Program-made: the position numbers and the translations under genes | Origin: a virus | Lineage: Duplodnaviria > Heunggongvirae > Uroviricota > Caudoviricetes | Length of the DNA stretch: 64,000 nt | Strand: one strand, 5' to 3' | IMG/VR virus record: IMGVR_UViG_2703718815_000003 | Part shown: piece after piece, positions 6,678 through 45,763 of the stretch | Layout of the letters: each line of letters starts with the position of its first letter | How positions within the stretch are numbered: position 1 is the first letter of the stretch | The notes under the pieces: generated by a model | The model's input: only the letters and a program-made list of their open reading frames with translations | The model's database searches: none | What the model was told of the DNA's origin: nothing

Positions 6678-8711
6678 TTACTTAACTTGGTGGCCTGGTT
6701 TAGCACCAGCATCCGGGCTTAACAGGAAGATATCTTTTCCGCCAGGGCCAGCAGCCATCACCATGCCTTCGGAGATACCGAAGCGCATTTTACGCGGTGC
6801 CAGGTTAGCCACCATAATGGTGTGACGACCAATCAGTGCCTGTGGGTCTGGATAAGCAGAACGGATGCCTGAGAAGACATTGCGTTTTTCACCGCCGAGA
6901 TCCAGCGTCAGGCGCAGCAGTTTGTCAGAACCTTCAACAAACTCTGCGTTTTCGATCAGTGCCACGCGCAGGTCAACTTTGGCAAAGTCGTCAAAGGTGA
7001 TGGTTTCCTGAATCGGGTCGTCTGCCAGCGGGCCAGTAACTGGCGCGGCAGCTGCTTTCACTTCTTCTTTGGATGCTTCCACCAGTGCTTCAACCTGCTT
7101 CATATCGATGCGGTTATACAGTGCCTTGAACGGATTCACTTTATGGCCCAGCAGCGGTTGCTGGATACCATCCCAGGTCAGTTCTGTATTCAGGAATGCT
7201 TCTGCACGTTCAGTCAGTTTCGGCAGTACCGGCTTCAGGTACGTCATCAGCACGCGGAACAGGTTAATGCCCATAGAGCAAATCGCCTGCAGATCGGCAT
7301 CGCGTCCTTCCTGCTTCGCCACCACCCACGGAGCCTGTTCATCGACATAGCGGTTAGCCAGGTCAGCCAATGCCATGATTTCACGGATAGCTTTACCAAA
7401 TTCACGGCTTTCCCATGCTTCGCCAATCACTTCAGCGGCATCAGTAAAGGTTTTGTACAGTTGCGGGTCAGCCAGTTCGCTTGCCAGCACGCCGTCAAAA
7501 CGCTTGTTGATAAAGCCTGCATTACGGGAGGCCAGGTTAACCACTTTGTTCACGATATCGGCATTCACGCGCTGAACGAAATCCTCCAGGTTGAGATCGA
7601 TATCATCAATGCGCGAAGAGAGTTTCGCAGTGTAGTAGTAACGCAGGCTGTCAGCGTCAAAATGATTCAGCCAGGTGCTGGCTTTAATAAAGGTGCCGCG
7701 AGACTTGGACATCTTCGCGCCGTTCACCGTCACATAGCCGTGAACAAACAGGTTGGTCGGCTTGCGGAAGTTGCTGCCTTCCAGCATGGCAGGCCAGAAC
7801 AGGCTGTGGAAGTAAACAATATCTTTACCGATGAAGTGGTACAGCTCGGCGGTGGAGTCTTTCTTCCAGTATTCATCGAAGCTGGTGGTATCGCCGCGCT
7901 TGTCGCACAGATTCTTGAAGGAACCCATGTAGCCAATCGGCGCGTCCAGCCAGACGTAGAAATATTTGCCCGGCGCGTTCGGAATTTCAAAACCGAAGTA
8001 GGGCGCATCTCGGGAGATATCCCACTGTTGCAGGCCGGATTCAAACCATTCCTGCATTTTGTTCGCCACCTGCTCCTGCAACGCGCCGCTGCGGGTCCAT
8101 GCCTGCAACATTTCGCTGAAAGAAGGCAGATCAAAGAAGAAGTGTTCGGAATCACGCATTACCGGGGTAGCGCCAGAAACCACCGATTTCGGCTCGATCA
8201 ATTCAGTCGGGCTATATGTTGCGCCGCAGACTTCACAGTTATCGCCGTATTGATCTGGCGCTTTACATTTCGGGCAGGTGCCTTTTACAAAACGATCCGG
8301 CAGGAACATGCCTTTTTCCGGGTCGTACAACTGAGAGATAGTGCGGTTTTTAATAAAACCGTTCTCTTTCAGGCGAGTATAGATAAGCTCAGACAACTGA
8401 CGGTTCTCTTCGCTGTGCGTCGAGTGATAGTTGTCATAGCTGATGTTAAAGCCTGCGAAATCAGTCTGGTGTTCCTGACTCATTTCGCCAATCATCTGCT
8501 CCGGTGTGATACCAAGCTGCTGTGCTTTCAGCATGATCGGCGTACCGTGGGCATCGTCGGCACAGATGAAATTAACCTCGTGGCCGCGCATTCGCTGGTA
8601 ACGAACCCAGACATCAGCCTGGATGTGCTCCAGCATATGGCCGAGGTGGATTGAGCCGTTAGCGTACGGCAGCGCGCACGTCACCAGAATTTTCTTCGCG
8701 ACTTGGGTCAT
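6678..8711 (-). CDS. metG: methionyl-tRNA synthetase
   Basis: Track ORF trimmed to ATG ([26 protein letters not shown]...); KMSKS motif (GAKMSKSRG); C-terminal tRNA-binding domain; enterobacterial-like, about 677 aa. Confidence 0.95.
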
Positions 8712-8868
8712 AGTAGGCATTACTTCTTTGTAGTGAAAAGGGGCTTGATAGTAACAAAATGGCCTTATGTCTGCCATGTGATAACAGCATTTCTCATAAA
8801 TGATTAAATGTCGTAGCTGGAGTACACTACAAGGCGACAATTGCGCAAATTAAAATAAAGGAGACGGG

Positions 8869-9969
8869 ATGAGCGAGTCCAAATCGCCGGATGCCCTGAG
8901 AGCAATGGTAGCCGGTACGCTGGCTAATTTTCAGCACCCAACCCTGAAACACAACCTGACTACGCTTAAAGCGTTACACCATGTTGCGTTGATGGATGAC
9001 ACACTGCATGTCGAACTAATCATGCCTTTCGTGTGGAATAAGCCTTTTGAAGACCTGAAAGAGCAATGTAGTGGTGATCTGCTCCGTATCACTGGCGCAA
9101 AGGCTATTGACTGGAAGCTGTCGTACAACATTGCCACGCTTAAGCGCGTCAAAAACCAACCAGGCATTAATGGCGTTAAGAACATTATCGCCGTCAGCTC
9201 AGGCAAGGGCGGCGTGGGTAAATCCTCCACGGCGGTAAACCTGGCACTGGCGTTGGCTGCTGAAGGTGCGAAAGTTGGTATTTTGGATGCCGATATCTAT
9301 GGTCCATCAATTCCAACCATGCTGGGCGCGGAAAACCAACGTCCAACCTCACCTGACGGTACTCACATGGCACCTATCATGTCTCATGGCCTGGCAACCA
9401 ACTCTATTGGTTATCTGGTCACCGACGACAATGCAATGGTGTGGCGTGGACCGATGGCGAGCAAGGCGTTAATGCAGATGTTGCAGGAAACATTGTGGCC
9501 TGATCTGGACTATCTTGTTCTCGATATGCCGCCGGGCACTGGTGATATTCAGTTGACGCTGGCGCAGAACATTCCTGTAACTGGTGCTGTTGTGGTAACT
9601 ACGCCGCAAGACATCGCGCTGATCGATGCGAAGAAAGGCATTGTGATGTTCGAAAAAGTCGAAGTGCCGGTACTTGGTATCGTCGAAAACATGAGTGTGC
9701 ATATTTGCAGTAACTGCGGTCATCACGAGCCAATTTTTGGCACCGGTGGCGCAGAGAAACTGGCCGAGAAATACAACACGCAGTTGTTAGGCCAAATGCC
9801 ACTTCATATCTCTCTTCGTGAAGATCTGGATAACGGAACACCAACCGTTATTAGTCGTCCAGATAGTGAATTTACGGCTATTTATCGTGACCTCGCAGAT
9901 CGCGTTGCTGCCCAAATGTATTGGCAAGGTGAAGTAATACCTGGCGAAATCGCATTCCGCGCAGTGTGA
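8869..9969 (+). CDS. apbC: Mrp/ApbC family Fe-S cluster carrier ATPase
   Basis: 366 aa; Walker A SGKGGVGKS; CxxC near C-terminus; divergent from metG as in enterobacterial chromosomes. Confidence 0.9.
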   Translation: MSESKSPDALRAMVAGTLANFQHPTLKHNLTTLKALHHVALMDDTLHVELIMPFVWNKPFEDLKEQCSGDLLRITGAKAIDWKLSYNIATLKRVKNQPGINGVKNIIAVSSGKGGVGKSSTAVNLALALAAEGAKVGILDADIYGPSIPTMLGAENQRPTSPDGTHMAPIMSHGLATNSIGYLVTDDNAMVWRGPMASKALMQMLQETLWPDLDYLVLDMPPGTGDIQLTLAQNIPVTGAVVVTTPQDIALIDAKKGIVMFEKVEVPVLGIVENMSVHICSNCGHHEPIFGTGGAEKLAEKYNTQLLGQMPLHISLREDLDNGTPTVISRPDSEFTAIYRDLADRVAAQMYWQGEVIPGEIAFRAV

Positions 9970-25580: not shown

Positions 25581-26225
25581 CTAATGAACGGTCACTCGGC
25601 CACAGAACCGGTTTTCTATCTTTTCTACAGCGTTATCTAGCATTCTCATCACTGATCTGGCTCTTGCTTCAACCGTGCGATATCGGTTGGAAACGACGAA
25701 GGTTTGCAGATCTCCCCTTTGCGGATGCAGGTGAATTTTTGTCAGTTCCCCGCACATCAACGCATCAATACGAGCGACATACAGACGGTCTAATGATGCT
25801 CGTTGTGATCGCAAGTAATCTCGCTCTGAGAGAGCGACTCCCGGGCGTAAGCCAGCAATGGCGTTAAAGTTTGAAATAGCAGTTTTGTGGCAAAACTTTT
25901 CGATATCGAGGGCTAACTCAATACACCGATCTTCATTTGTATGGCCGACCAAATCCAACGTGTAGGCCATAACATCAGCAGGTGTGCGATCGATAACAAA
26001 GCCTTCAACACCACGCGTAAGTAGCTCTATATGCTTTGCTATTTCCATTTGAATCTGAAGCCGCTCATATAGAGGCATAGAATCACCTACTCGAACACCG
26101 AGGCGGCTCATCAAACTTCCGACACCAGCATCCACGTAAGGGATTCCGTAATGTTTGTCGATATATTTAGCCAGGGTTGTTTTCCCACTGCCCTGAGCAC
26201 CAGTGATCCCAATCCGGTAATCCAT
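25581..26225 (-). CDS. P-loop nucleotide kinase (dNMP kinase-like), tentative
   Basis: 214 aa; N-terminal IGITGAQGSGKTTLAKYI Walker A; within nucleotide-metabolism cluster. Confidence 0.55.
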   Translation of the reverse strand: MDYRIGITGAQGSGKTTLAKYIDKHYGIPYVDAGVGSLMSRLGVRVGDSMPLYERLQIQMEIAKHIELLTRGVEGFVIDRTPADVMAYTLDLVGHTNEDRCIELALDIEKFCHKTAISNFNAIAGLRPGVALSERDYLRSQRASLDRLYVARIDALMCGELTKIHLHPQRGDLQTFVVSNRYRTVEARARSVMRMLDNAVEKIENRFCGRVTVH

Positions 26226-26701
26226 TACGACCTTCTGTATACGATCTGCGAAAAGCCAGGCTCTTCCTCGCTGGCTCGTTGGGTATAAGCTGTTTCAACA
26301 GGCACAAAGCCTAAATTACGCATCATGCTTGCCGGGAAGAATGCATCGGCGTTTGGCACATCAACGCCGATGTGGGAGAGCCAAATCTCTTCAACATGCG
26401 GCATGAATAGCGAGTAAATTTGTTCCCCGCCAATCACCCACACAGGCTCTGGTAATCGCAACACATCATCCACACCAGCAGGGTAGAATCCATTTGGTAC
26501 AAAGCCATGAGAGCGCGTCAAAACGAGGTTATGACGCTCTGGAAGAGGGCGTTTGAGACTTTCCATCGTTTTACGCCCCATAACGACAGTGGCGTTTTTG
26601 GTGAGTCTCTTAAATAGCTTCAGATCGGTAGAACAACGCCAGGGGAGTTCATTCGCTATGCCGATCTCATAGTTACGGCCAACAGCAGCGATCATCTTCA
26701 T
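26225..26701 (-). CDS. folA: dihydrofolate reductase
   Basis: 158 aa; MIAAVGRNYEIG...LPW...VMGRKT...WVIGG pattern. Confidence 0.85.
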   Translation of the reverse strand: MKMIAAVGRNYEIGIANELPWRCSTDLKLFKRLTKNATVVMGRKTMESLKRPLPERHNLVLTRSHGFVPNGFYPAGVDDVLRLPEPVWVIGGEQIYSLFMPHVEEIWLSHIGVDVPNADAFFPASMMRNLGFVPVETAYTQRASEEEPGFSQIVYRRS

Positions 26702-27112: not shown

Positions 27113-28243
27113 TCACACCGCCACTGGAACCTTGATCCACGATAGAGGGTCATAGCCAAGAATTAAAACCTCGTCCCATTTGAAATCATCCAACTCTGAC
27201 CATTCATGAGGGAAAATAACGACCGGATCTGAATGCTCTGGAGCCTGTCGTTTCATTAGCTCACACACACCTTCCATGTGGTTGTTGTACAAATGCACGT
27301 CAAAGCCAAAATGCACAAATGCACCGGCCATGTGACCCGTAATCTTCGCGAGAAAATGAGTGAGAATGCCATAGCCAGCAATATTGAATGGCATACCAAC
27401 AAAAGTGTCTACGCTACGCTGTACGAGGCAGGAGTTGAGGATGCGTTTGGGGATTCCAAGTTCATCCAGTTCAGCTTCAGTAACACTGCCGTCCATCTCC
27501 AGATCGTATAGCATCTTGGTGTAGATAGACTCGTAACCGAGGCGACTGTGTTGAAGACCAATGTCAGTTGCCATCGTTAAACGGGTTTCAAAATCCAGCT
27601 CACGACTCCACAAAGAGAAGACAAAGTGGCAAGGTGGCAGTTTCATATCCTCAAGCTCGCCTACGTTCCATGCGTTAAGCATGATGCGACGATCGGTAGG
27701 GTTCGTGCGCAGTGTATCGACAATACGCTGTAGCTGATCGATTTCACGGGACAGCACTACGCGATCTTCACTGATACCCAGGTATCCCTCGACTTTGTAC
27801 CCGCGTTCACGGAAAGTAGCGATCTTGCTCAGATATTCACTATGGCTCACGATGCGGGTATCTTCCCATCGACGCCACTGCTTACCGTAAACCGGCCCCA
27901 AATCGCCATTCTCATCGGCCCATGCATCCCAAATCTTAACGCCGTTATCCTTGAGAAATTGGATGTTGCCCGTGCCTTTCAGATACCACTCAAGTTCGAC
28001 AAGCAGTGGCTTAAGATTTACCGCCTTTCCAGAAATAAGCGGCACAGTCCCACCAGTAAGCATGTAGTAAGAGGGAACGTAGCAGGTGCTTAAAGTACCA
28101 GTGCCTGTGCGATCATCAGCCTGCACGCCGCTTTTAAGCACCGTCTCAATAACTTTTGCATACGATGCGTTTGTTACCTGACCGTTCGTATGCTCACGAT
28201 TCAAAAGGAGTGACACAAAAACCTCACAAAGATAAGTAACCAC
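27113..28243 (-). CDS. thyA: thymidylate synthase (ThyA family) with two large internal insertions; start uncertain
   Basis: DRTGTGT, WADENGDLGPVYGKQWR, LPPCH, QRSVDTFVGMPFNIAGY (Asn retained), HLYNNH; about 30- and 50-aa inserts vs E. coli ThyA; track start is GTG, alternative GTG about 27 nt downstream. Confidence 0.85.
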   Translation of the reverse strand: MVTYLCEVFVSLLLNREHTNGQVTNASYAKVIETVLKSGVQADDRTGTGTLSTCYVPSYYMLTGGTVPLISGKAVNLKPLLVELEWYLKGTGNIQFLKDNGVKIWDAWADENGDLGPVYGKQWRRWEDTRIVSHSEYLSKIATFRERGYKVEGYLGISEDRVVLSREIDQLQRIVDTLRTNPTDRRIMLNAWNVGELEDMKLPPCHFVFSLWSRELDFETRLTMATDIGLQHSRLGYESIYTKMLYDLEMDGSVTEAELDELGIPKRILNSCLVQRSVDTFVGMPFNIAGYGILTHFLAKITGHMAGAFVHFGFDVHLYNNHMEGVCELMKRQAPEHSDPVVIFPHEWSELDDFKWDEVLILGYDPLSWIKVPVAV

Positions 28244-29333: not shown

Positions 29334-30476
29334 TTACAGGTCTGCAAACTGGCTTAGAGAAGCCTTGTCCACGGTAGAATCGATCTGACCTACCAGATAT
29401 GTGCTTTGCTCTGCCTCTTGTGGTGCAATTTGCAGTGTGTCGGTTAACAACCACTTGTTCATCCAGACCAGCGGATCTGTGGTAACTTCTGGAAATAAAG
29501 CCTTCAGGCCAAGACGATTCATAGCCAGATTGGTGCGGTATTTTACATAGGTCTTCAGAATATCCGCGTTTAAACCAATCATCGAACCGTCTTTGAAGAG
29601 ATAGTCTGCCCAGTTCATTTCTTGTTCGGCGACTGATTTCATGGTGTCGTAAATGACGTTTTCTTCATCAGCAGCAATCTCTTTCCACAATAAACCTTCG
29701 CGACCGGTACGCATGAAGCGGATCATGCGTTCAGTTCCTTCGCAATGCAGAGCTTCATCACGGGCAATAAAGCGCATAATTTTGGTGTTACCCTCAAGCA
29801 ACTTCCGTTCGCCAAAGGCAAACGTACATGCAAAACTTACATAGAAACGGATCGCCTCAAGCGCATTAATGGACACCAACGTGCGGAAAAGCTGACGGTG
29901 CAAAGGGTATGGCTCCCAGCCATATTCATTTACGTACAGACGTTCAAACTCTTTCTCACCTAACGACTGGCGCTCGCAGGTCATCCCATAAAGCCTGTCA
30001 TATTCAGCAGAGATACTGATCGCTCGGTTGATGATTTCTTCATCCGTAACAATACCGTCAAAAACAATGCTCGGATCGTCCACCATGCCACGAATAATGT
30101 GGGTGTAGCTGCGGCTATGGATAGTCTCAGAGAAAGACCATGTTTCAACCCACGTTTCCAGTTCAGGAATAGAGATAAGCGGCAGCAGCGTTGCATTTGG
30201 GCTACGTCCCTGAACTGAATCGAGTAACGTTTGATAACGGAGATTGCTCAGAAAAATGTGACGTTCGTGGTCCCGCAGCTTCGTGTTGAAGTCGATACGA
30301 TCGCTCGAAATATCAACTTCTTCCGGCCGCCAGAAGAAAGACAATTGACGTTCAATCAACTTTTCAAAATCACGGTATTTTTGCTGATCGTAACGTGCCA
30401 CGTTGACAGATTGTCCGAGGAACATAGGCTCTTTGGTTGCATCATTAGCACCCAAACGGAACGTTGAATATGACAT
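29334..30476 (-). CDS. nrdB: ribonucleotide reductase class Ia beta subunit
   Basis: 380 aa; collinear with E. coli NrdB ([20 protein letters not shown]..., C-terminal YLVGQIDS). Confidence 0.95.
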
Positions 30477-30507
30477 GTGTTTTTCCTTTTTCTTTTTTGG
30501 TGCGTTT

Positions 30508-30523
30508 AAACAAGTTGTTATCT
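30508..30523 (-). promoter_or_regulatory. class I palindromic motif
   Basis: aaacaagttgttatct between nrdA terminator and nrdB start. Confidence 0.5.
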
Positions 30524-30556
30524 TATGTGTTTAAACAAGGCTTACAAATCAAAGAG

Positions 30557-30582
30557 AAGGTGGGGATATCCCCCACCATATG
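30557..30582 (-). terminator. rho-independent terminator after nrdA
   Basis: ggtgggga ta tcccccacc followed by T-rich run. Confidence 0.55.
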
Positions 30583-32898
30583 TCAGATTTTGCAGGCTCC
30601 GTCGCACTCATCTTCTGGCTCGACGGCTACAGCTTGCGTCAGTGGATTATGCGGTTCGTCGTCATCACGCTTTCCTGCCCCATCTCTGGTGTTGTGGTAG
30701 TAAAGCGTTTTAACTCCCATCTTGTAGGCGAGAAGCAAATCTGACAGTAGCGTCATCATTGGGACTTTATCGCCTTCAAAGCGAGAAGGGTCATAGTTGG
30801 TATTGGCTGAAATAGCCTGGTCAAAGAACTTCTGGATGATCGCCACCTTTGTCAGATAGCCGCGGTTGTCCGGCATATCCCACAGGTATTCATACTGTTC
30901 CTTCAGTTTTTCAAACTCAGGCACGACCATCTTAACGATGCCGTCCTTAGAAGATTTCACCGACACCAGGCCACGAGGCGGTTCGATGCCGTTGGTGGAA
31001 TTAGTGATCTGGCTGGAAGTCTCGCATGGCATTTGTGCCGTCAGTGTGGAGTTGCGAAGGCCGTATTTTGCAATACGTTCACGCAGTTCTTCCCACGGCA
31101 TCTTTAACTCAAAGTTGGTTTCGCCACTTTCGTCTAATGAAGAACGGTAATGGTCGATCGGCAACTGACCAATTGCGTACTTGGTCTGCTCAAACCAGTC
31201 ACACTCACCTTTTGCTTCAGCAAGTCGGCAGCTGGCATCAAGAAGGTAATACTGGATAGCTTCGAACGTTTCATGCACCAGTTTATTGCCAGCGGTATCA
31301 GAATAACGAACGCCATTCTTTGCCAGGTAATAAGCAAAGTTGGTTACACCAATTCCCAAGCTACGACGAGCTTTGGCAGGCACTTCGGCTGCCTCCATCG
31401 GATAGTCTTGATAATCCAGTAACGAATCCAGTGCAGCAACGGCATAGAACGCCACCTCTTTAAGAGACTCCAGTGAACGGATGGCTCCGAGGTTAAAAGC
31501 GGATAAAGTGCATAGCGCGATCTCACCGTTCGGGTCGTCGGTAAATGCCAGTGGACGAGTGGGTAGAGTGATCTCCATGCACAGGTTTGACTGGCGAACA
31601 GGTGCAAGAGCAGGAATGAAAGCGCCATGCTCGTTAATATGATCTACGTTCGCAATATAAATTCGGCCCGTGGACGCTCGTTCCTGCATCAGAGATGAGA
31701 ACAGCTCAATGGCAGGTACTGACTTCTTGCGAATTGAATCATCGGCTTCGTATTTATGGTACAGCTTTTCAAACAGCTCCTGGTCTGTGAAGAAGGCTTC
31801 GTACATATCAGGCACATCATGCGGGCTGAACAGAGTGATGTTCTCGCTTCTGACGAGTCGACGGTACATTAGACGGTTACTCATGACGCCGTAATCAAGA
31901 TGGCGAACGCGGTTTTCATCAATACCACGGTTATTTTTCACCACCAGCAGACTTTCAACTTCAAGATGCCAGATCGGGTAAAACGCTGTTGCTGCGCCAC
32001 CACGAACACCACCTTGCGAACAAGATTTAACAGCCGTCTGGAAATGCTTCAGGAATGGAATAACTCCGGTATGGGTGGCTTCACCATTGCGGATCTCGCT
32101 GCCCAGCGCACGGATACGGCCAAAACCAATACCAATTCCAGCACGACGTGAAACGTAGTCGATAATTGCGGCTGAAGCTGCACTAATCCCTTTCAGACTA
32201 TCGCCAGACTCAATCAGCACACAACTGGAGAACTGACGGGTTGGAGTACGGACGCCGGCCATGATTGGTGTGGGCAGAGACAGTTTGAACGTACTTGTAA
32301 CGTCATAGAAACCTTTGACCATCTCCATACGTGTTTTGCCAGCGCAGTCGTCTTCCCAATTCTGGAACAGACACATGCCTACCAGCATATAGATATGTTG
32401 CGGCCCCTCATGAATCTCACCAGTAACACGGTTTTGAACGAGGTATTTGCTTTGCAACTGCACCGTAGCTGCATAGCCAAAAAGATCGTCACGTTTCGGC
32501 TTAATGTAATTGCCGAGTTCTTCGATCTCTTCAAACGAATAATGTGTCAGCAAATCCTTGTCATAAACGCCCTTGTTAACGTTCTTGACAATGTGTTGGT
32601 AGAAGTTCGGATAGTCGTAACGACCGAAGGCATCTTTGCGGATTTTAAAAATGTTCAGGCGGGCAGCCACCTGTGAGTAATTTGGTGCTTCTGGTGAGAT
32701 CAAATCAGCGGCAGATTTAACCAAAGCCTCATGCAACTGGCTGGTGGTAATCCCATCAAAAATGCTGGCCGCAGCTCCCATTGCTACAGCGGATGCGCTT
32801 ACACCACGAATGCCTTCTACGCCATACATTACGACGCGGTTGTATTTTTCTTCGGATAACGGCTCTGTTTGGCCGTTACGTTTTACGATGCTTATCAT
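30583..32898 (-). CDS. nrdA: ribonucleotide reductase class Ia alpha subunit
   Basis: 771 aa; collinear with E. coli NrdA (VQNRVTGEI, SCVLIE, C-terminal CxxxxC...ACKI). Confidence 0.95.
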   Translation of the reverse strand: MISIVKRNGQTEPLSEEKYNRVVMYGVEGIRGVSASAVAMGAAASIFDGITTSQLHEALVKSAADLISPEAPNYSQVAARLNIFKIRKDAFGRYDYPNFYQHIVKNVNKGVYDKDLLTHYSFEEIEELGNYIKPKRDDLFGYAATVQLQSKYLVQNRVTGEIHEGPQHIYMLVGMCLFQNWEDDCAGKTRMEMVKGFYDVTSTFKLSLPTPIMAGVRTPTRQFSSCVLIESGDSLKGISAASAAIIDYVSRRAGIGIGFGRIRALGSEIRNGEATHTGVIPFLKHFQTAVKSCSQGGVRGGAATAFYPIWHLEVESLLVVKNNRGIDENRVRHLDYGVMSNRLMYRRLVRSENITLFSPHDVPDMYEAFFTDQELFEKLYHKYEADDSIRKKSVPAIELFSSLMQERASTGRIYIANVDHINEHGAFIPALAPVRQSNLCMEITLPTRPLAFTDDPNGEIALCTLSAFNLGAIRSLESLKEVAFYAVAALDSLLDYQDYPMEAAEVPAKARRSLGIGVTNFAYYLAKNGVRYSDTAGNKLVHETFEAIQYYLLDASCRLAEAKGECDWFEQTKYAIGQLPIDHYRSSLDESGETNFELKMPWEELRERIAKYGLRNSTLTAQMPCETSSQITNSTNGIEPPRGLVSVKSSKDGIVKMVVPEFEKLKEQYEYLWDMPDNRGYLTKVAIIQKFFDQAISANTNYDPSRFEGDKVPMMTLLSDLLLAYKMGVKTLYYHNTRDGAGKRDDDEPHNPLTQAVAVEPEDECDGACKI

Positions 32899-43148: not shown

Positions 43149-45488
43149 TTAATCTTCTAGTTCTTCTGTTGGTGATGTCTTCTCTCGTCGGTCATCTATC
43201 GTCTGTAAAGCCGCAATGATTTCAGCTAGTGGCTTCTCCCGATACATCTCGACGATCTGTGATTTGGTGTATTTCTTGTCACCAATTTCAACTCGCCCGC
43301 TGGCGTTCTTTGGCAGGTATCCTTCTTCCAGCATGTACTCGACGAGCGACTCGATAACGTCGAGGCCACGAGTAGGATCGAAGTAGAATTTCCAGGTGCA
43401 TTTGCCATACGGTGGTGCAACTTTGTTTTTGATGCACTCTGCGCCTACGTCCTGACCGATCTTCTCTTTCCCATCCTTCATCACCGATGCACCGAGACGG
43501 ATGCGCACAGAAGCGTAAAACTTCGGTGAATCGCCGCCTGGCGACGTAGTAGGGTCGCCAAACATTACACCGATTTTTGTGCGAACCTGATTCAAGAAGA
43601 TGATGCAGGCGTTGTATTTGCGTGCCCACAAAGCCAGAGTAGGGAAGTTCGCACTCGTCGCACGAGCCAGTGCCGTATTGTCGTTCATGTTCAGCTGATC
43701 TTTGTCTTTGGCAGTGCCTTCAGCCATCTTTTCGAACTTCTCGGCTTTGGAGTTCGGAACCATAGACGCAAGTGAGTCAGCCACGATACAGATAGGTGCT
43801 GATTCAGGAATAAGCTCTTCATCACGTACCAATTTAAGAATTGTGCCGATCAACTCTACAGAGTCTTCGAAGGTATCAGGCTGCTTGTATACCCACTGAC
43901 CGTCATCCTCATCTGCGTTCAGACCATTGGCGACAGCCAGGCCAACGTCAAAACTGTTTTCATGATCGAGGAATACCGCCAGACCATCTTGTTTTTGAGC
44001 GGAGATCATCGCTGCTGTTGCAAGGAATGTGTTGTGGCTGATAATCCCGTTAGACCAGAAAGAGTGTGTTTCCGGCATCGCTACGTCGAACGTTGGTGCT
44101 TCACCTTCCTCAATAGCCACGACTTCGTCGTAGAACAAGTTAGAGCCAATTACCGCTGCCAGTTGTGCAAACAGATGCTCGTTAAAACGATTCTTTCTGC
44201 CAATGAAGGAGACATAGATTTCTCGCAGTTTGTCTATTCCGACACGATCGCCGCGGCCAATAACGTGGTCTACCAGAGCGTAGTCTTCACGGGTGGTCTT
44301 GGTGAGCGACTCGTAGAGTGATTTCACTAAGCCGCTGATGTGCGGAACATAGCCTGAGTAAGTGCGGTCAAAACCAATGTCCCGTTTGGTTGCCACTGAT
44401 AAACGTGCCGGAGATTCGAAACCAATCGTTGACAGAAAAAGGTCGTAATTAGAGCCACTGAATGACAGCCGGTAATATGTATTTTCATAACCCGCGACGT
44501 GTTTTTCAGAGATAGTTGACGTAATCCCCAGATTCAGGAGCATGAGGCGAATTTGCTGTAGCAGCAGCCCACTCGCGCTCACAACCTCAATGCAGCGACC
44601 ATCATTGACGTGGCATTCCAGCTCAAAGTAGCCGCGAAGGAATGCAATTTGAGCCTCGCTATTGGCGCGACGCACACTCAACGGAACCTGCTTGCCAGCA
44701 GCTTTCTCATACTCCAGACCATATTCTTTAAAAAGCAGCGAACGCACCTCTTTGCTAAACAGCACATGGTCTTCCGAGCCGTTATGTTTTCTCGTAACTG
44801 GCATCTTGTCTGATACCAGCGAAATGAGGCGGTAGTACTCATCCTTGATGAAAGGATCTGTGTTAGAAAAATTCACTGAATTTTCAGAGGCCACGTATCC
44901 GTCAGCAATTAAATAGCCCATCAGTTTTGCGATATTGGCATCCAGGTGCTGATCGCCGAATTGATGTGTGCCAACCATTGAAGGAATCGTGTCGCCTACA
45001 CTGATTTTTTCAGCATGTCGCCAGACGACATTACCTAAGTCGTCAACCACACGGATTGGGTGACGGAACGTAGCCTCGATATAACCGCCTGATGCCAGCT
45101 TAATACGCTTGAATTTGCGACGGTTGTTCCATGTCAGGTGTGAGGTCTTCTCTATCACGCCATTTTCATTGATGAGTCCAACGTTATGCTCTACATCGCG
45201 AGTAGTGCATGTCGCTTTGTACCCTTCAATCTCAAACAACTCTTTCACTGTTACCATTCCACGCTCCGTCAGCAGCATGGTGTCTGCGGTAACACATTTC
45301 CCTGCACTTGGAGGACCGAATACTTCGACGATACGACCACATGGGAAGCCGCCATCGTAACGACCGGAAATAGCTTTGTTTAACGGTGGAAAGCCTGTAT
45401 CAATCCAATGAGTTACTTTCTGAATTTCGTCGTTGCTACCGATTTTCTTTTTCAGAGCAAGTGCCAGTGCGGATTTTCCTTTTGCCAT
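43149..45488 (-). CDS. recA: RecA-family recombinase interrupted by an intein (precursor 779 aa)
   Basis: N-extein ...GRIVEVFGPPSAGK then Cys; C-extein collinear with RecA (FLNQVRTKIGVMFGDPTTSPGGDSPKFYASVRI); exteins total about 357 aa. Confidence 0.85.
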   Translation of the reverse strand: MAKGKSALALALKKKIGSNDEIQKVTHWIDTGFPPLNKAISGRYDGGFPCGRIVEVFGPPSAGKCVTADTMLLTERGMVTVKELFEIEGYKATCTTRDVEHNVGLINENGVIEKTSHLTWNNRRKFKRIKLASGGYIEATFRHPIRVVDDLGNVVWRHAEKISVGDTIPSMVGTHQFGDQHLDANIAKLMGYLIADGYVASENSVNFSNTDPFIKDEYYRLISLVSDKMPVTRKHNGSEDHVLFSKEVRSLLFKEYGLEYEKAAGKQVPLSVRRANSEAQIAFLRGYFELECHVNDGRCIEVVSASGLLLQQIRLMLLNLGITSTISEKHVAGYENTYYRLSFSGSNYDLFLSTIGFESPARLSVATKRDIGFDRTYSGYVPHISGLVKSLYESLTKTTREDYALVDHVIGRGDRVGIDKLREIYVSFIGRKNRFNEHLFAQLAAVIGSNLFYDEVVAIEEGEAPTFDVAMPETHSFWSNGIISHNTFLATAAMISAQKQDGLAVFLDHENSFDVGLAVANGLNADEDDGQWVYKQPDTFEDSVELIGTILKLVRDEELIPESAPICIVADSLASMVPNSKAEKFEKMAEGTAKDKDQLNMNDNTALARATSANFPTLALWARKYNACIIFLNQVRTKIGVMFGDPTTSPGGDSPKFYASVRIRLGASVMKDGKEKIGQDVGAECIKNKVAPPYGKCTWKFYFDPTRGLDVIESLVEYMLEEGYLPKNASGRVEIGDKKYTKSQIVEMYREKPLAEIIAALQTIDDRREKTSPTEELED
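44031..45296 (-). mobile_element. intein with LAGLIDADG homing-endonuclease domain inserted in RecA P-loop
   Basis: About 422 aa between GK and T; starts Cys, ends His-Asn, +1 Thr; LMGYLIADGYV and FLRGYFELE motifs. Confidence 0.8.
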
Positions 45489-45490
45489 GA

Positions 45491-45763
45491 TCAGGCTCCT
45501 TTTGTTTCGTTGATTCGTTTTAAAGCGGCGGATTCATCGAATACAATCGCATCGTGGTTAAGGAGTCTGGATACACGAGCGAGGATTTTTACGACCTGCT
45601 CGCTGACTAATCCAAACTCGCGATCTGTCGCTTTCATTCCGGCAGCGCCTAGAATTGACGGCAGTGCGATGACAGCGTACTCACCGTGATAAAAGACAAT
45701 CTCTTTTGCCAGTTGGGTGGGGGTGGTTGTAGCGCCATTAATAATCGATTTAAGCATTAGCAA
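45491..45763 (-). CDS. hypothetical protein (90 aa)
   Basis: Track ORF; stop abuts recA start. Confidence 0.45.
   Translation of the reverse strand: MLMLKSIINGATTTPTQLAKEIVFYHGEYAVIALPSILGAAGMKATDREFGLVSEQVVKILARVSRLLNHDAIVFDESAALKRINETKGA

Follow-up and report, generated by a model that had tools for sequence, protein, structure and literature searches.

A recombinase gene of the RecA/UvsX type, carried by an SSU5-type phage-plasmid, is interrupted within its Walker A motif by an insert that is very probably a class 1 intein with an embedded LAGLIDADG homing endonuclease, for which both protein splicing and homing are predicted. The gene lies in IMG/VR virus record IMGVR_UViG_2703718815_000003 (Duplodnaviria; Heunggongvirae; Uroviricota; Caudoviricetes), from which a stretch of 64,000 nucleotides (nt) was analyzed (here called the window). 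The region shares 98.5% identity with Escherichia phage Cyrano, an SSU5-like phage-plasmid of Escherichia coli LF82 (PMC9928086), and a 24-kb stretch is 98.7% identical to the 110-kb E. coli plasmid NZ_CP027358.1. Because of this near-identity, the window is assigned to an SSU5-type phage-plasmid of E. coli.

Organization of the interrupted recombinase gene

The precursor is encoded by a single open reading frame (ORF; Table 1). The Walker A segment GPPSAGK (residues 58 to 64) is followed directly by Cys65, and the insert ends in Ser-His-Asn, after which Thr487 opens the C-extein. Joining the two exteins (64 plus 293 residues) gives a protein of 357 amino acids with a calculated mass of 39.1 kDa and restores GPPSAGKT; the predicted ligation junction peptide is ...GPPSAGKTFLATAAMISAQK, and it spans ...SAGK-TFLATAAMISAQK. 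A preliminary description of this locus had reported GPPSAGK followed by Cys, a resumption at His-Asn-Thr about 422 residues later, exteins totaling about 357 amino acids, and a spliced product of about 39 kDa. Its numbers are all exact (the insert spans residues 65 to 486, i.e., 422 amino acids), and the only detail absent from it was the location of the ORF on the minus strand.

TABLE 1 Positions in the window of the precursor gene, its parts and sequence motifs, and other genes discussed in the text
Feature	Position	Strand	Remarks
Precursor gene (RecA/UvsX-like recombinase plus intein)	43149..45488	minus	Single ORF, 779 amino acids, 86.6 kDa
N-extein	45297..45488	minus	Residues 1-64; C-terminal end is the Walker A segment GPPSAGK (nt 45297..45317)
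Predicted intein	44031..45296	minus	Residues 65-486, 422 amino acids, 47.5 kDa; HINT splicing domain with nested LAGLIDADG homing endonuclease
C-extein	43149..44030	minus	Residues 487-779 plus stop; RecA core
Block A (CVTADTMLLTERG)	45258..45296	minus	Cys1, first nucleophile; Cys in 107/109 relatives
Cys30 (precursor Cys94), in KATCTT	about 45207..45209	minus	N-terminal splicing region
Block B (GGYIEATFRHPIRV)	45048..45089	minus	Thr76-x-x-His79 motif (Thr76-Phe-Arg-His79)
Block C (AKLMGYLIADGYV)	44892..44930	minus	First LAGLIDADG motif; catalytic Asp132 (intein numbering); Asp/Glu in 105/109 relatives
Block D (GKQVPLSVRRA)	44664..44696	minus	Conserved Lys202; Lys in 107/109 relatives
Block E (IAFLRGYFELECHV)	44607..44648	minus	Second LAGLIDADG motif; acidic Glu227; Glu/Asp in 103/109 relatives
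Block H (LLLQQIRLMLLNLGITSTI)	44511..44567	minus	Endonuclease domain; L253, L254, and G257 invariant
Block F (PTFDVAMPETHSFWSNG)	44046..44096	minus	Asp404 and His411
Block G (IISHN) and +1 residue	44028..44045	minus	His421, Asn422; Thr487 (+1), last residue of restored GPPSAGKT
90-amino-acid ORF (phrog_2207)	45491..45763	minus	Conserved; between the exonuclease gene and recA
metG and divergent apbC	6678..9969	minus (metG)	metG, chromosomal-type methionyl-tRNA synthetase; GC content raised (0.50-0.52)
Nucleotide-metabolism module	about 26224..26700, 27113..28216, 29334..32898		Dihydrofolate reductase, thymidylate synthase, nrdB, nrdA
Four-tRNA cluster	59852..60398	minus	Ser(TGA), Thr(TGT), Tyr(GTA), Asn(GTT)

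The exteins belong to the RecA family. The Pfam RecA profile (PF00154) matched the precursor in two stretches flanking the insert (E value, 3.4e-36; 125.5 bits versus a cutoff of 27), and the exteins align with the structures of E. coli, mycobacterial, and other RecA proteins (E values of about 1e-27). In the alignments to E. coli RecA structures, the N-extein stops at ...GPESSGK and the C-extein picks up directly after it. The Walker A motif, the catalytic glutamate, the Walker B motif, and the L2 region are collinear with those of RecA through both exteins, with the C-extein carrying the catalytic-Glu region FLDHENSFD, the Walker B-like segment ICIVADS, and the L2 region NQVRTKIGVMFGDPTTSPGG. 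In PHROGs, the extein corresponds to a "UvsX-like recombinase" (phrog_97; E value, 1.2e-91). The score against the bacterial RecA equivalog model TIGR02012 in the NCBIfam search (132.5 bits) did not reach the cutoff of 325.3, and the Pfam search of the precursor gave no match to the RecA_C domain (PF21096). On the basis of the TIGR02012 score, the extein is classified as a phage RecA/UvsX-like recombinase and not as a cellular RecA orthologue. Thus, the earlier reading of the gene as a RecA homologue collinear with bacterial RecA stands as to family and collinearity but does not extend to bacterial RecA orthology. Because 422 residues part the Walker A lysine from its threonine, there is strong reason to expect that recombinase activity depends on splicing.

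Uninterrupted alleles define the insertion site

The gene occurs without the insert, as a protein of 357 to 358 amino acids, in Escherichia phage CMS-2020a, Salmonella phage SSU5, the Yersinia pestis plasmid pMT (pMT1), and an Enterobacter hormaechei plasmid. In both protein and DNA alignments, the sole large difference between the window's gene and these empty alleles is a gap of exactly 422 codons (1,266 nt) between Lys64 and Thr65, so that the boundaries of the insert are independently fixed at the positions that intein chemistry requires. The empty site reads GGGAAA/ACGTTCCTT in CMS-2020a (the slash marks the insertion point) and GGTAAA/ACCTTTTTG in the SSU5-type alleles, and all occupied alleles read GGGAAA/ACATTCCT.

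Splicing and endonuclease motifs of the insert

We scored the splicing and endonuclease residues of the insert in an alignment of 109 full-length relatives. At every splicing-block position, the window's residue is the majority residue (96 to 108 of the 109 relatives); Cys1, Thr76, and His79 are found in at least 105 of them and are invariant in a further alignment (A2). The preliminary description had held that an absence of the block A, B, F, or G residues would speak against an intein. Cys1, Thr76 and His79, Asp404, His411, His421-Asn422, and the +1 Thr are all in place. It had also noted two LAGLIDADG-type motifs, which we located as a clear first motif, LMGYLIADG (residues 189 to 197, with Asp132), and a more degenerate second motif, LRGYFELEC (residues 284 to 292, with Glu227), which lies inside the Pfam LAGLIDADG_3 match.

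Its identification of the insert as a LAGLIDADG intein is further backed by profiles and by the predicted fold. The precursor matched Intein_splicing (PF14890; E value, 2e-11; 44.4 bits versus a cutoff of 35.8; residues 73 to 486), LAGLIDADG_3 (PF14528; E value, 2.4e-17; 63.4 bits versus 22.5), and the NCBIfam models of the intein N terminus (TIGR01445; 35.5 bits versus 24.5) and C terminus (TIGR01443; 17.8 bits versus 15.6); the matches to RecA, LAGLIDADG_3, and Intein_splicing are far beyond chance. In a sequence search against solved structures, the middle of the precursor matched V-ATPase inteins and PI-PkoII. An AlphaFold model of the intein, built on a 10-sequence alignment, had a mean predicted local distance difference test score (pLDDT) of 79.8 and a predicted template modeling score of 0.83. 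The best Foldseek matches of this model in the PDB are all endonuclease-containing inteins, i.e., TliVMA (E value, 2.5e-19; template modeling [TM] score, 0.68), PI-PfuI, PI-PkoII, PhoVMA, and PI-SceI, and the splicing domain alone also resembles mini-inteins, including those of Pyrococcus horikoshii RadA and Mycobacterium tuberculosis RecA.

Distribution and divergence point to recent transfer

The intein DNA was found in 248 PLSDB plasmids, mainly from Escherichia (123), Klebsiella (71), Enterobacter (41), and Citrobacter (6), with a few others; the C-extein DNA was found in 484, including 63 from Yersinia and 42 from Salmonella. For the intein itself, the PLSDB search gave one Salmonella record and none from Yersinia. 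In a set of 5,426 complete E. coli genomes, the intein was present in 120, in every case on a plasmid, and the uninterrupted site was present in about 130. From these two comparisons, roughly half of the related plasmid alleles are occupied.

The intein has diverged far less than the gene that surrounds it. Between the window and an E. hormaechei plasmid, the intein is 96.8% identical and the extein 82 to 84%; between the window and a Klebsiella pneumoniae plasmid, the respective values are 97.0% and 79 to 81%; and between the Enterobacter and Klebsiella alleles, they are 99.8% and 84 to 85%. Overall, intein DNA is 96.8 to 99.8% identical between alleles whose exteins are 79 to 86% identical. 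The number of synonymous substitutions per site (dS) is 0.09 for the intein versus 1.0 to 2.3 for the C-extein, for which values above 1 are saturated and hence approximate only. The ratio of nonsynonymous to synonymous rates (dN/dS) of the intein is 0.15 overall (endonuclease region, 0.20; N-terminal splicing region, 0.05 to 0.10), and the intein is thus under purifying selection. In occupied alleles, purifying selection on the exteins is strong, with dN/dS values of about 0.01 to 0.02.

The flanks of the insertion point also carry traces of transfer. An occupied and an empty allele of the same Enterobacter-type background are 97 to 100% identical along the gene and 87% identical in the two 60-nt segments that straddle the insertion point. 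On the N-terminal side, the flank of the window matches that of the empty E. coli-type allele and the flank of Cyrano matches those of occupied SSU5-type alleles, which therefore points to co-conversion tracts of different lengths from separate events. The divergence contrast, the partial occupancy, and the co-conversion patches correspond to the footprints expected of recent, repeated endonuclease-driven homing, and they suggest that the intein is still spreading among enterobacterial plasmids.

Two other ideas were discarded. GC content is uninformative as a sign of foreign origin (the intein and the C-extein have the same GC content at third codon positions, 0.524), and the host recA as a homing target is not supported, as neither the 85-nt site nor the intein matched any E. 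coli chromosome.

Relatives of the intein

An exhaustive HMMER search of protein cluster representatives with the window's intein as the query yielded 4,662 representatives at an E value of ≤1e-3 and 189 at ≤1e-30. An initial impression of a rare lineage, based on a word-indexed search with 13 to 19 matches, was dropped in view of these 189 representatives. Among the best 147 representatives, at least 89 have RecA-like C-exteins; within this set, the junction GxxxxGK-C...HN-T/S is present in nearly all RecA-hosted relatives, and GK-C...HN-T/S is present in most relatives with other hosts as well. The nearest relatives outside the enterobacterial cluster have inteins 46 to 48% identical to that of the window and belong to the same phage RecA-like extein family (P0035 and P0036). 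Because no intein outside the enterobacterial phage-plasmid cluster exceeds 48% identity, the window's intein represents a distinct allele within the RecA P-loop family.

Three other representatives, i.e., P0007 (on the 550-kb contig GCA_027484465.1 of a metagenome-assembled genome), P0012, and P0013, occupy the same RecA site in hosts that comprise cellular RecA and phage-like contigs. Their inteins have lost either the first LAGLIDADG motif or a large part of the endonuclease domain, and they represent later stages of the homing cycle, unlike the intact copy in the window.

Degenerating copies also occur close to the window's own lineage. In E. coli plasmid pHS30-1 (NZ_CP029493.1), the gene is cut by an IS3 element, next to which the truncated "recombinase" ORF retains the C-extein and the intein tail. 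In Escherichia albertii plasmid p3RM15115 (CP043243.1), the ORF is shortened to 614 amino acids, the intein is only 92 to 94% identical to the others, and the gene is unannotated.

Proposed splicing and homing, and alternative explanations

In the explanation that we favor, translation would give the 86.6-kDa precursor, whose P-loop is split and which would not bind ATP properly. The intein would then excise itself by the class 1 pathway, i.e., an N-S acyl shift at Cys1, transesterification to the +1 Thr, cyclization of Asn422, and an O-N shift, releasing a 39.1-kDa recombinase with GPPSAGKT and a free 47.5-kDa endonuclease. When a related phage-plasmid with an uninterrupted recA allele resides in or infects the same cell, the endonuclease would cut that allele, and recombinational repair from the occupied allele would copy the intein together with a few flanking bases (homing).

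Several observations weigh against this explanation. Splicing of the precursor and DNA cleavage by the intein are predictions from intein biology. The second LAGLIDADG motif has Cys at the canonical Gly position, as it does in 29 of the 109 relatives. The last 14 residues of the AlphaFold model, which include blocks F and G, have a pLDDT of only about 46 to 50, so that the model does not confirm the active-site geometry. A +1 Thr is a weaker nucleophile than Cys or Ser, and for this reason splicing could be slow or conditional. The extein dS values above 1 are, as noted above, saturated and approximate. Finally, the decaying copies mean that the intein is not maintained everywhere.

Some of these points would also fit an intein that splices but whose endonuclease is now inactive. 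At this late point of the homing cycle, spread would be only vertical or through ordinary plasmid recombination. The Cys in the second motif and the decaying copies are what such a state might produce, and the chromosomal and metagenomic relatives P0007, P0012, and P0013, without the first motif, indicate that the lineage does degenerate. We nevertheless regard this alternative as unlikely for the window's copy, which retains the block D Lys and the two catalytic acidic residues. The dN/dS of 0.20 in the endonuclease region, the 99.8% identical intein in Enterobacter and Klebsiella alleles of much lower identity, and the short co-conversion patches, varied in length and placed exactly at the site, argue against it. 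So does the proportion of empty sites (about half), as endonuclease activity continues to be selected for under such conditions.

Conditional splicing raises a further question, namely, whether the intein, beyond being a selfish element, ties recombinase activity to the state of the cell, for example, through a reversible disulfide trap between Cys1 and Cys30. If so, an active RecA-like protein would be formed only under reducing or stress conditions, e.g., when the element passes from plasmid maintenance into lytic replication. Such a regulatory role is possible but unsupported, and we consider a switch of this kind improbable; the sole hint is Cys30, conserved in about half of the related inteins (57 of 109).

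It is far less probable still that the insert is a permanent, non-splicing domain or inactivates the gene, so that the 779-amino-acid product would be a fusion endonuclease or the product of a pseudogene. In favor of this reading, splicing is a prediction, and most copies bear the name "LAGLIDADG family homing endonuclease" from the Prokaryotic Genome Annotation Pipeline (PGAP); this is automatic naming, however, and not evidence. All splicing residues are conserved, the frame is intact, the exact protein is present on 425 contigs and belongs to a 90% cluster of 1,496 members, and the very low dN/dS of the occupied-allele exteins would be unexpected for a dead recombinase. Group I introns, too, can encode LAGLIDADG endonucleases, but an RNA-level interruption by a group I or II intron with a LAGLIDADG ORF can be rejected with near certainty, as the insert continues the reading frame of both exteins, without a stop codon or a separate start, contains the HINT blocks A, B, F, and G, and Rfam at the gathering threshold identified no intron family anywhere in the window. 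A class 1 intein with a homing endonuclease, predicted to splice and to home, thus remains the explanation that we prefer.

Genomic setting

The precursor gene is part of the element's module for recombination and replication. It has an AGGAG ribosome-binding site 8 nt upstream of its start codon, which lies 2 nt past the stop codon of the upstream 90-amino-acid ORF; this ORF is common to SSU5, Y. pestis pMT, and Enterobacter and Klebsiella plasmids. The neighboring genes encode a 5'-3' exonuclease, a gp32-like single-strand DNA-binding protein, SbcCD-like proteins, and DnaE, and another neighbor is annotated as a UvsY mediator in phage Cyrano.

Elsewhere in the window, the metG-apbC pair recurs in 208 plasmid records with 95 to 99% identity, nearly all of them from Escherichia. 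The pair is therefore no assembly artifact but regular cargo in the E. coli branch of these elements. The nucleotide-metabolism module includes a dihydrofolate reductase, placed in the window by its start, whose RefSeq name in the near-identical NZ_CP027358.1 is trimethoprim-resistant DfrA51 (name only). Within the tRNA cluster, tRNA-Thr(TGT) reads ACA, which is the +1 Thr codon of every occupied recA allele examined; the corresponding codon in empty alleles is ACG, ACC, or ACT. This match is probably a coincidence combined with co-conversion.

Annotation and significance

Automatic annotation of the precursor is inconsistent and mostly misleading. The exact 779-amino-acid protein is variously named "LAGLIDADG family homing endonuclease," "recombinase RecA," and "RecA/RadA recombinase"; in RefSeq and PLSDB records, the precursor usually bears the first of these names and sometimes "recombinase RecA" or "hypothetical protein." PHROGs keeps it as a separate family of "unknown function" (phrog_9666), and the name "intein-containing recombinase RecA" appears in some RefSeq plasmid records. 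In the limited literature that we covered, we found no paper on this intein in SSU5-type phage-plasmids. The intein is mentioned neither in the paper on LF82 and Cyrano nor in a survey of phage-plasmids, and literature linking "intein" with SSU5, pHCM2, or phage-plasmid contained nothing relevant (i.e., mentions in reference lists and engineered toxin-intein systems). The intein is thus a new, or at least unpublished, example of a thoroughly known class, which annotation pipelines already partly recognize; the arrangement of an intein in the P-loop of RecA is common and already recognized and is not a rarity.

Our picture of inteins is left unchanged, as P-loop inteins in RecA/RadA-family proteins and other ATPases are well documented. 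The value of the present case lies in an apparently active homing intein in common phage-plasmids of E. coli, Klebsiella, and Enterobacter, about half of whose natural alleles are empty, which would make a convenient and genetically tractable system for measuring intein homing, co-conversion, and fitness effects. If an active homing intein is indeed native to E. coli plasmids, it would provide a tractable bacterial model for intein homing. Recombination among SSU5-type phage-plasmids, a group with some carriers of resistance genes, may also be traced with the intein as a marker. In addition, these results flag a systematic annotation error, by which a recombinase gene is called a homing endonuclease in most RefSeq copies.

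Comparison with known inteins

Insertion between the Lys and Thr of Walker A is the "classic" P-loop intein position (PMC5050341, PMC4760082), known in DnaB, MCM, RFC, and many other ATPases (PMC4760082), and RecA is among the top bacterial intein hosts, with 56 inteins, some of them in Proteobacteria (PMC4760082). The window's intein shares the Lys-Thr insertion with mycobacteriophage TerL1-a and with the inteins at DnaB site b, MCM site a, and RFC-S site a, and it resembles the TerL1-a inteins further in being phage-borne and class 1, with Cys1 and a C-terminal His-Asn. The strongest intein-bearing non-RecA matches in NCBIfam were models of the archaeal RFC small subunit and IF-2, starting at the P-loop. 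Unlike in all of these systems, the host here is a RecA/UvsX-like recombinase instead of a terminase, helicase, or clamp loader, and the carriers are enterobacterial phage-plasmids.

Archaeal RadA proteins contain a mini-intein within the P-loop that splices conditionally (PMC5790916). The splicing domain of the window's intein is structurally similar to the RadA inteins of P. horikoshii and Thermococcus sibericus (4e2t; Foldseek E value, 8e-5). The latter are mini-inteins without a homing endonuclease, and their temperature-conditional splicing has been proven experimentally, whereas the window's intein has 422 amino acids and an apparently intact endonuclease, belongs to mesophilic bacteria, and is predicted to splice from its sequence.

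The M. tuberculosis RecA intein (PI-MtuI) likewise has a bacterial RecA-family host and an endonuclease domain, and its structural likeness to the window's intein is confined to the splicing domain (2in0; E value, 2e-3). It is not known to be located in the P-loop. The model of intein-containing RecA of the M. tuberculosis type (NF007072) gave 100.8 bits versus a cutoff of 1024, covering the RecA core only; the window's intein is therefore a different allele from PI-MtuI, for which splicing is needed to form active RecA (PMC5050341, PMC11377839).

In overall architecture, the closest known systems are TliVMA (7qss), PI-PfuI (1dq3), PI-PkoII (2cw7), and PI-SceI (1vde), which similarly combine a HINT domain with a two-motif LAGLIDADG endonuclease (Foldseek E values from 2.5e-19 to 1e-8; TM scores up to 0.68). 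They differ from the window's intein in sequence (9 to 22% identity), in their hosts (V-ATPase, ribonucleotide reductase, and DNA polymerase), and in the organisms that carry them.

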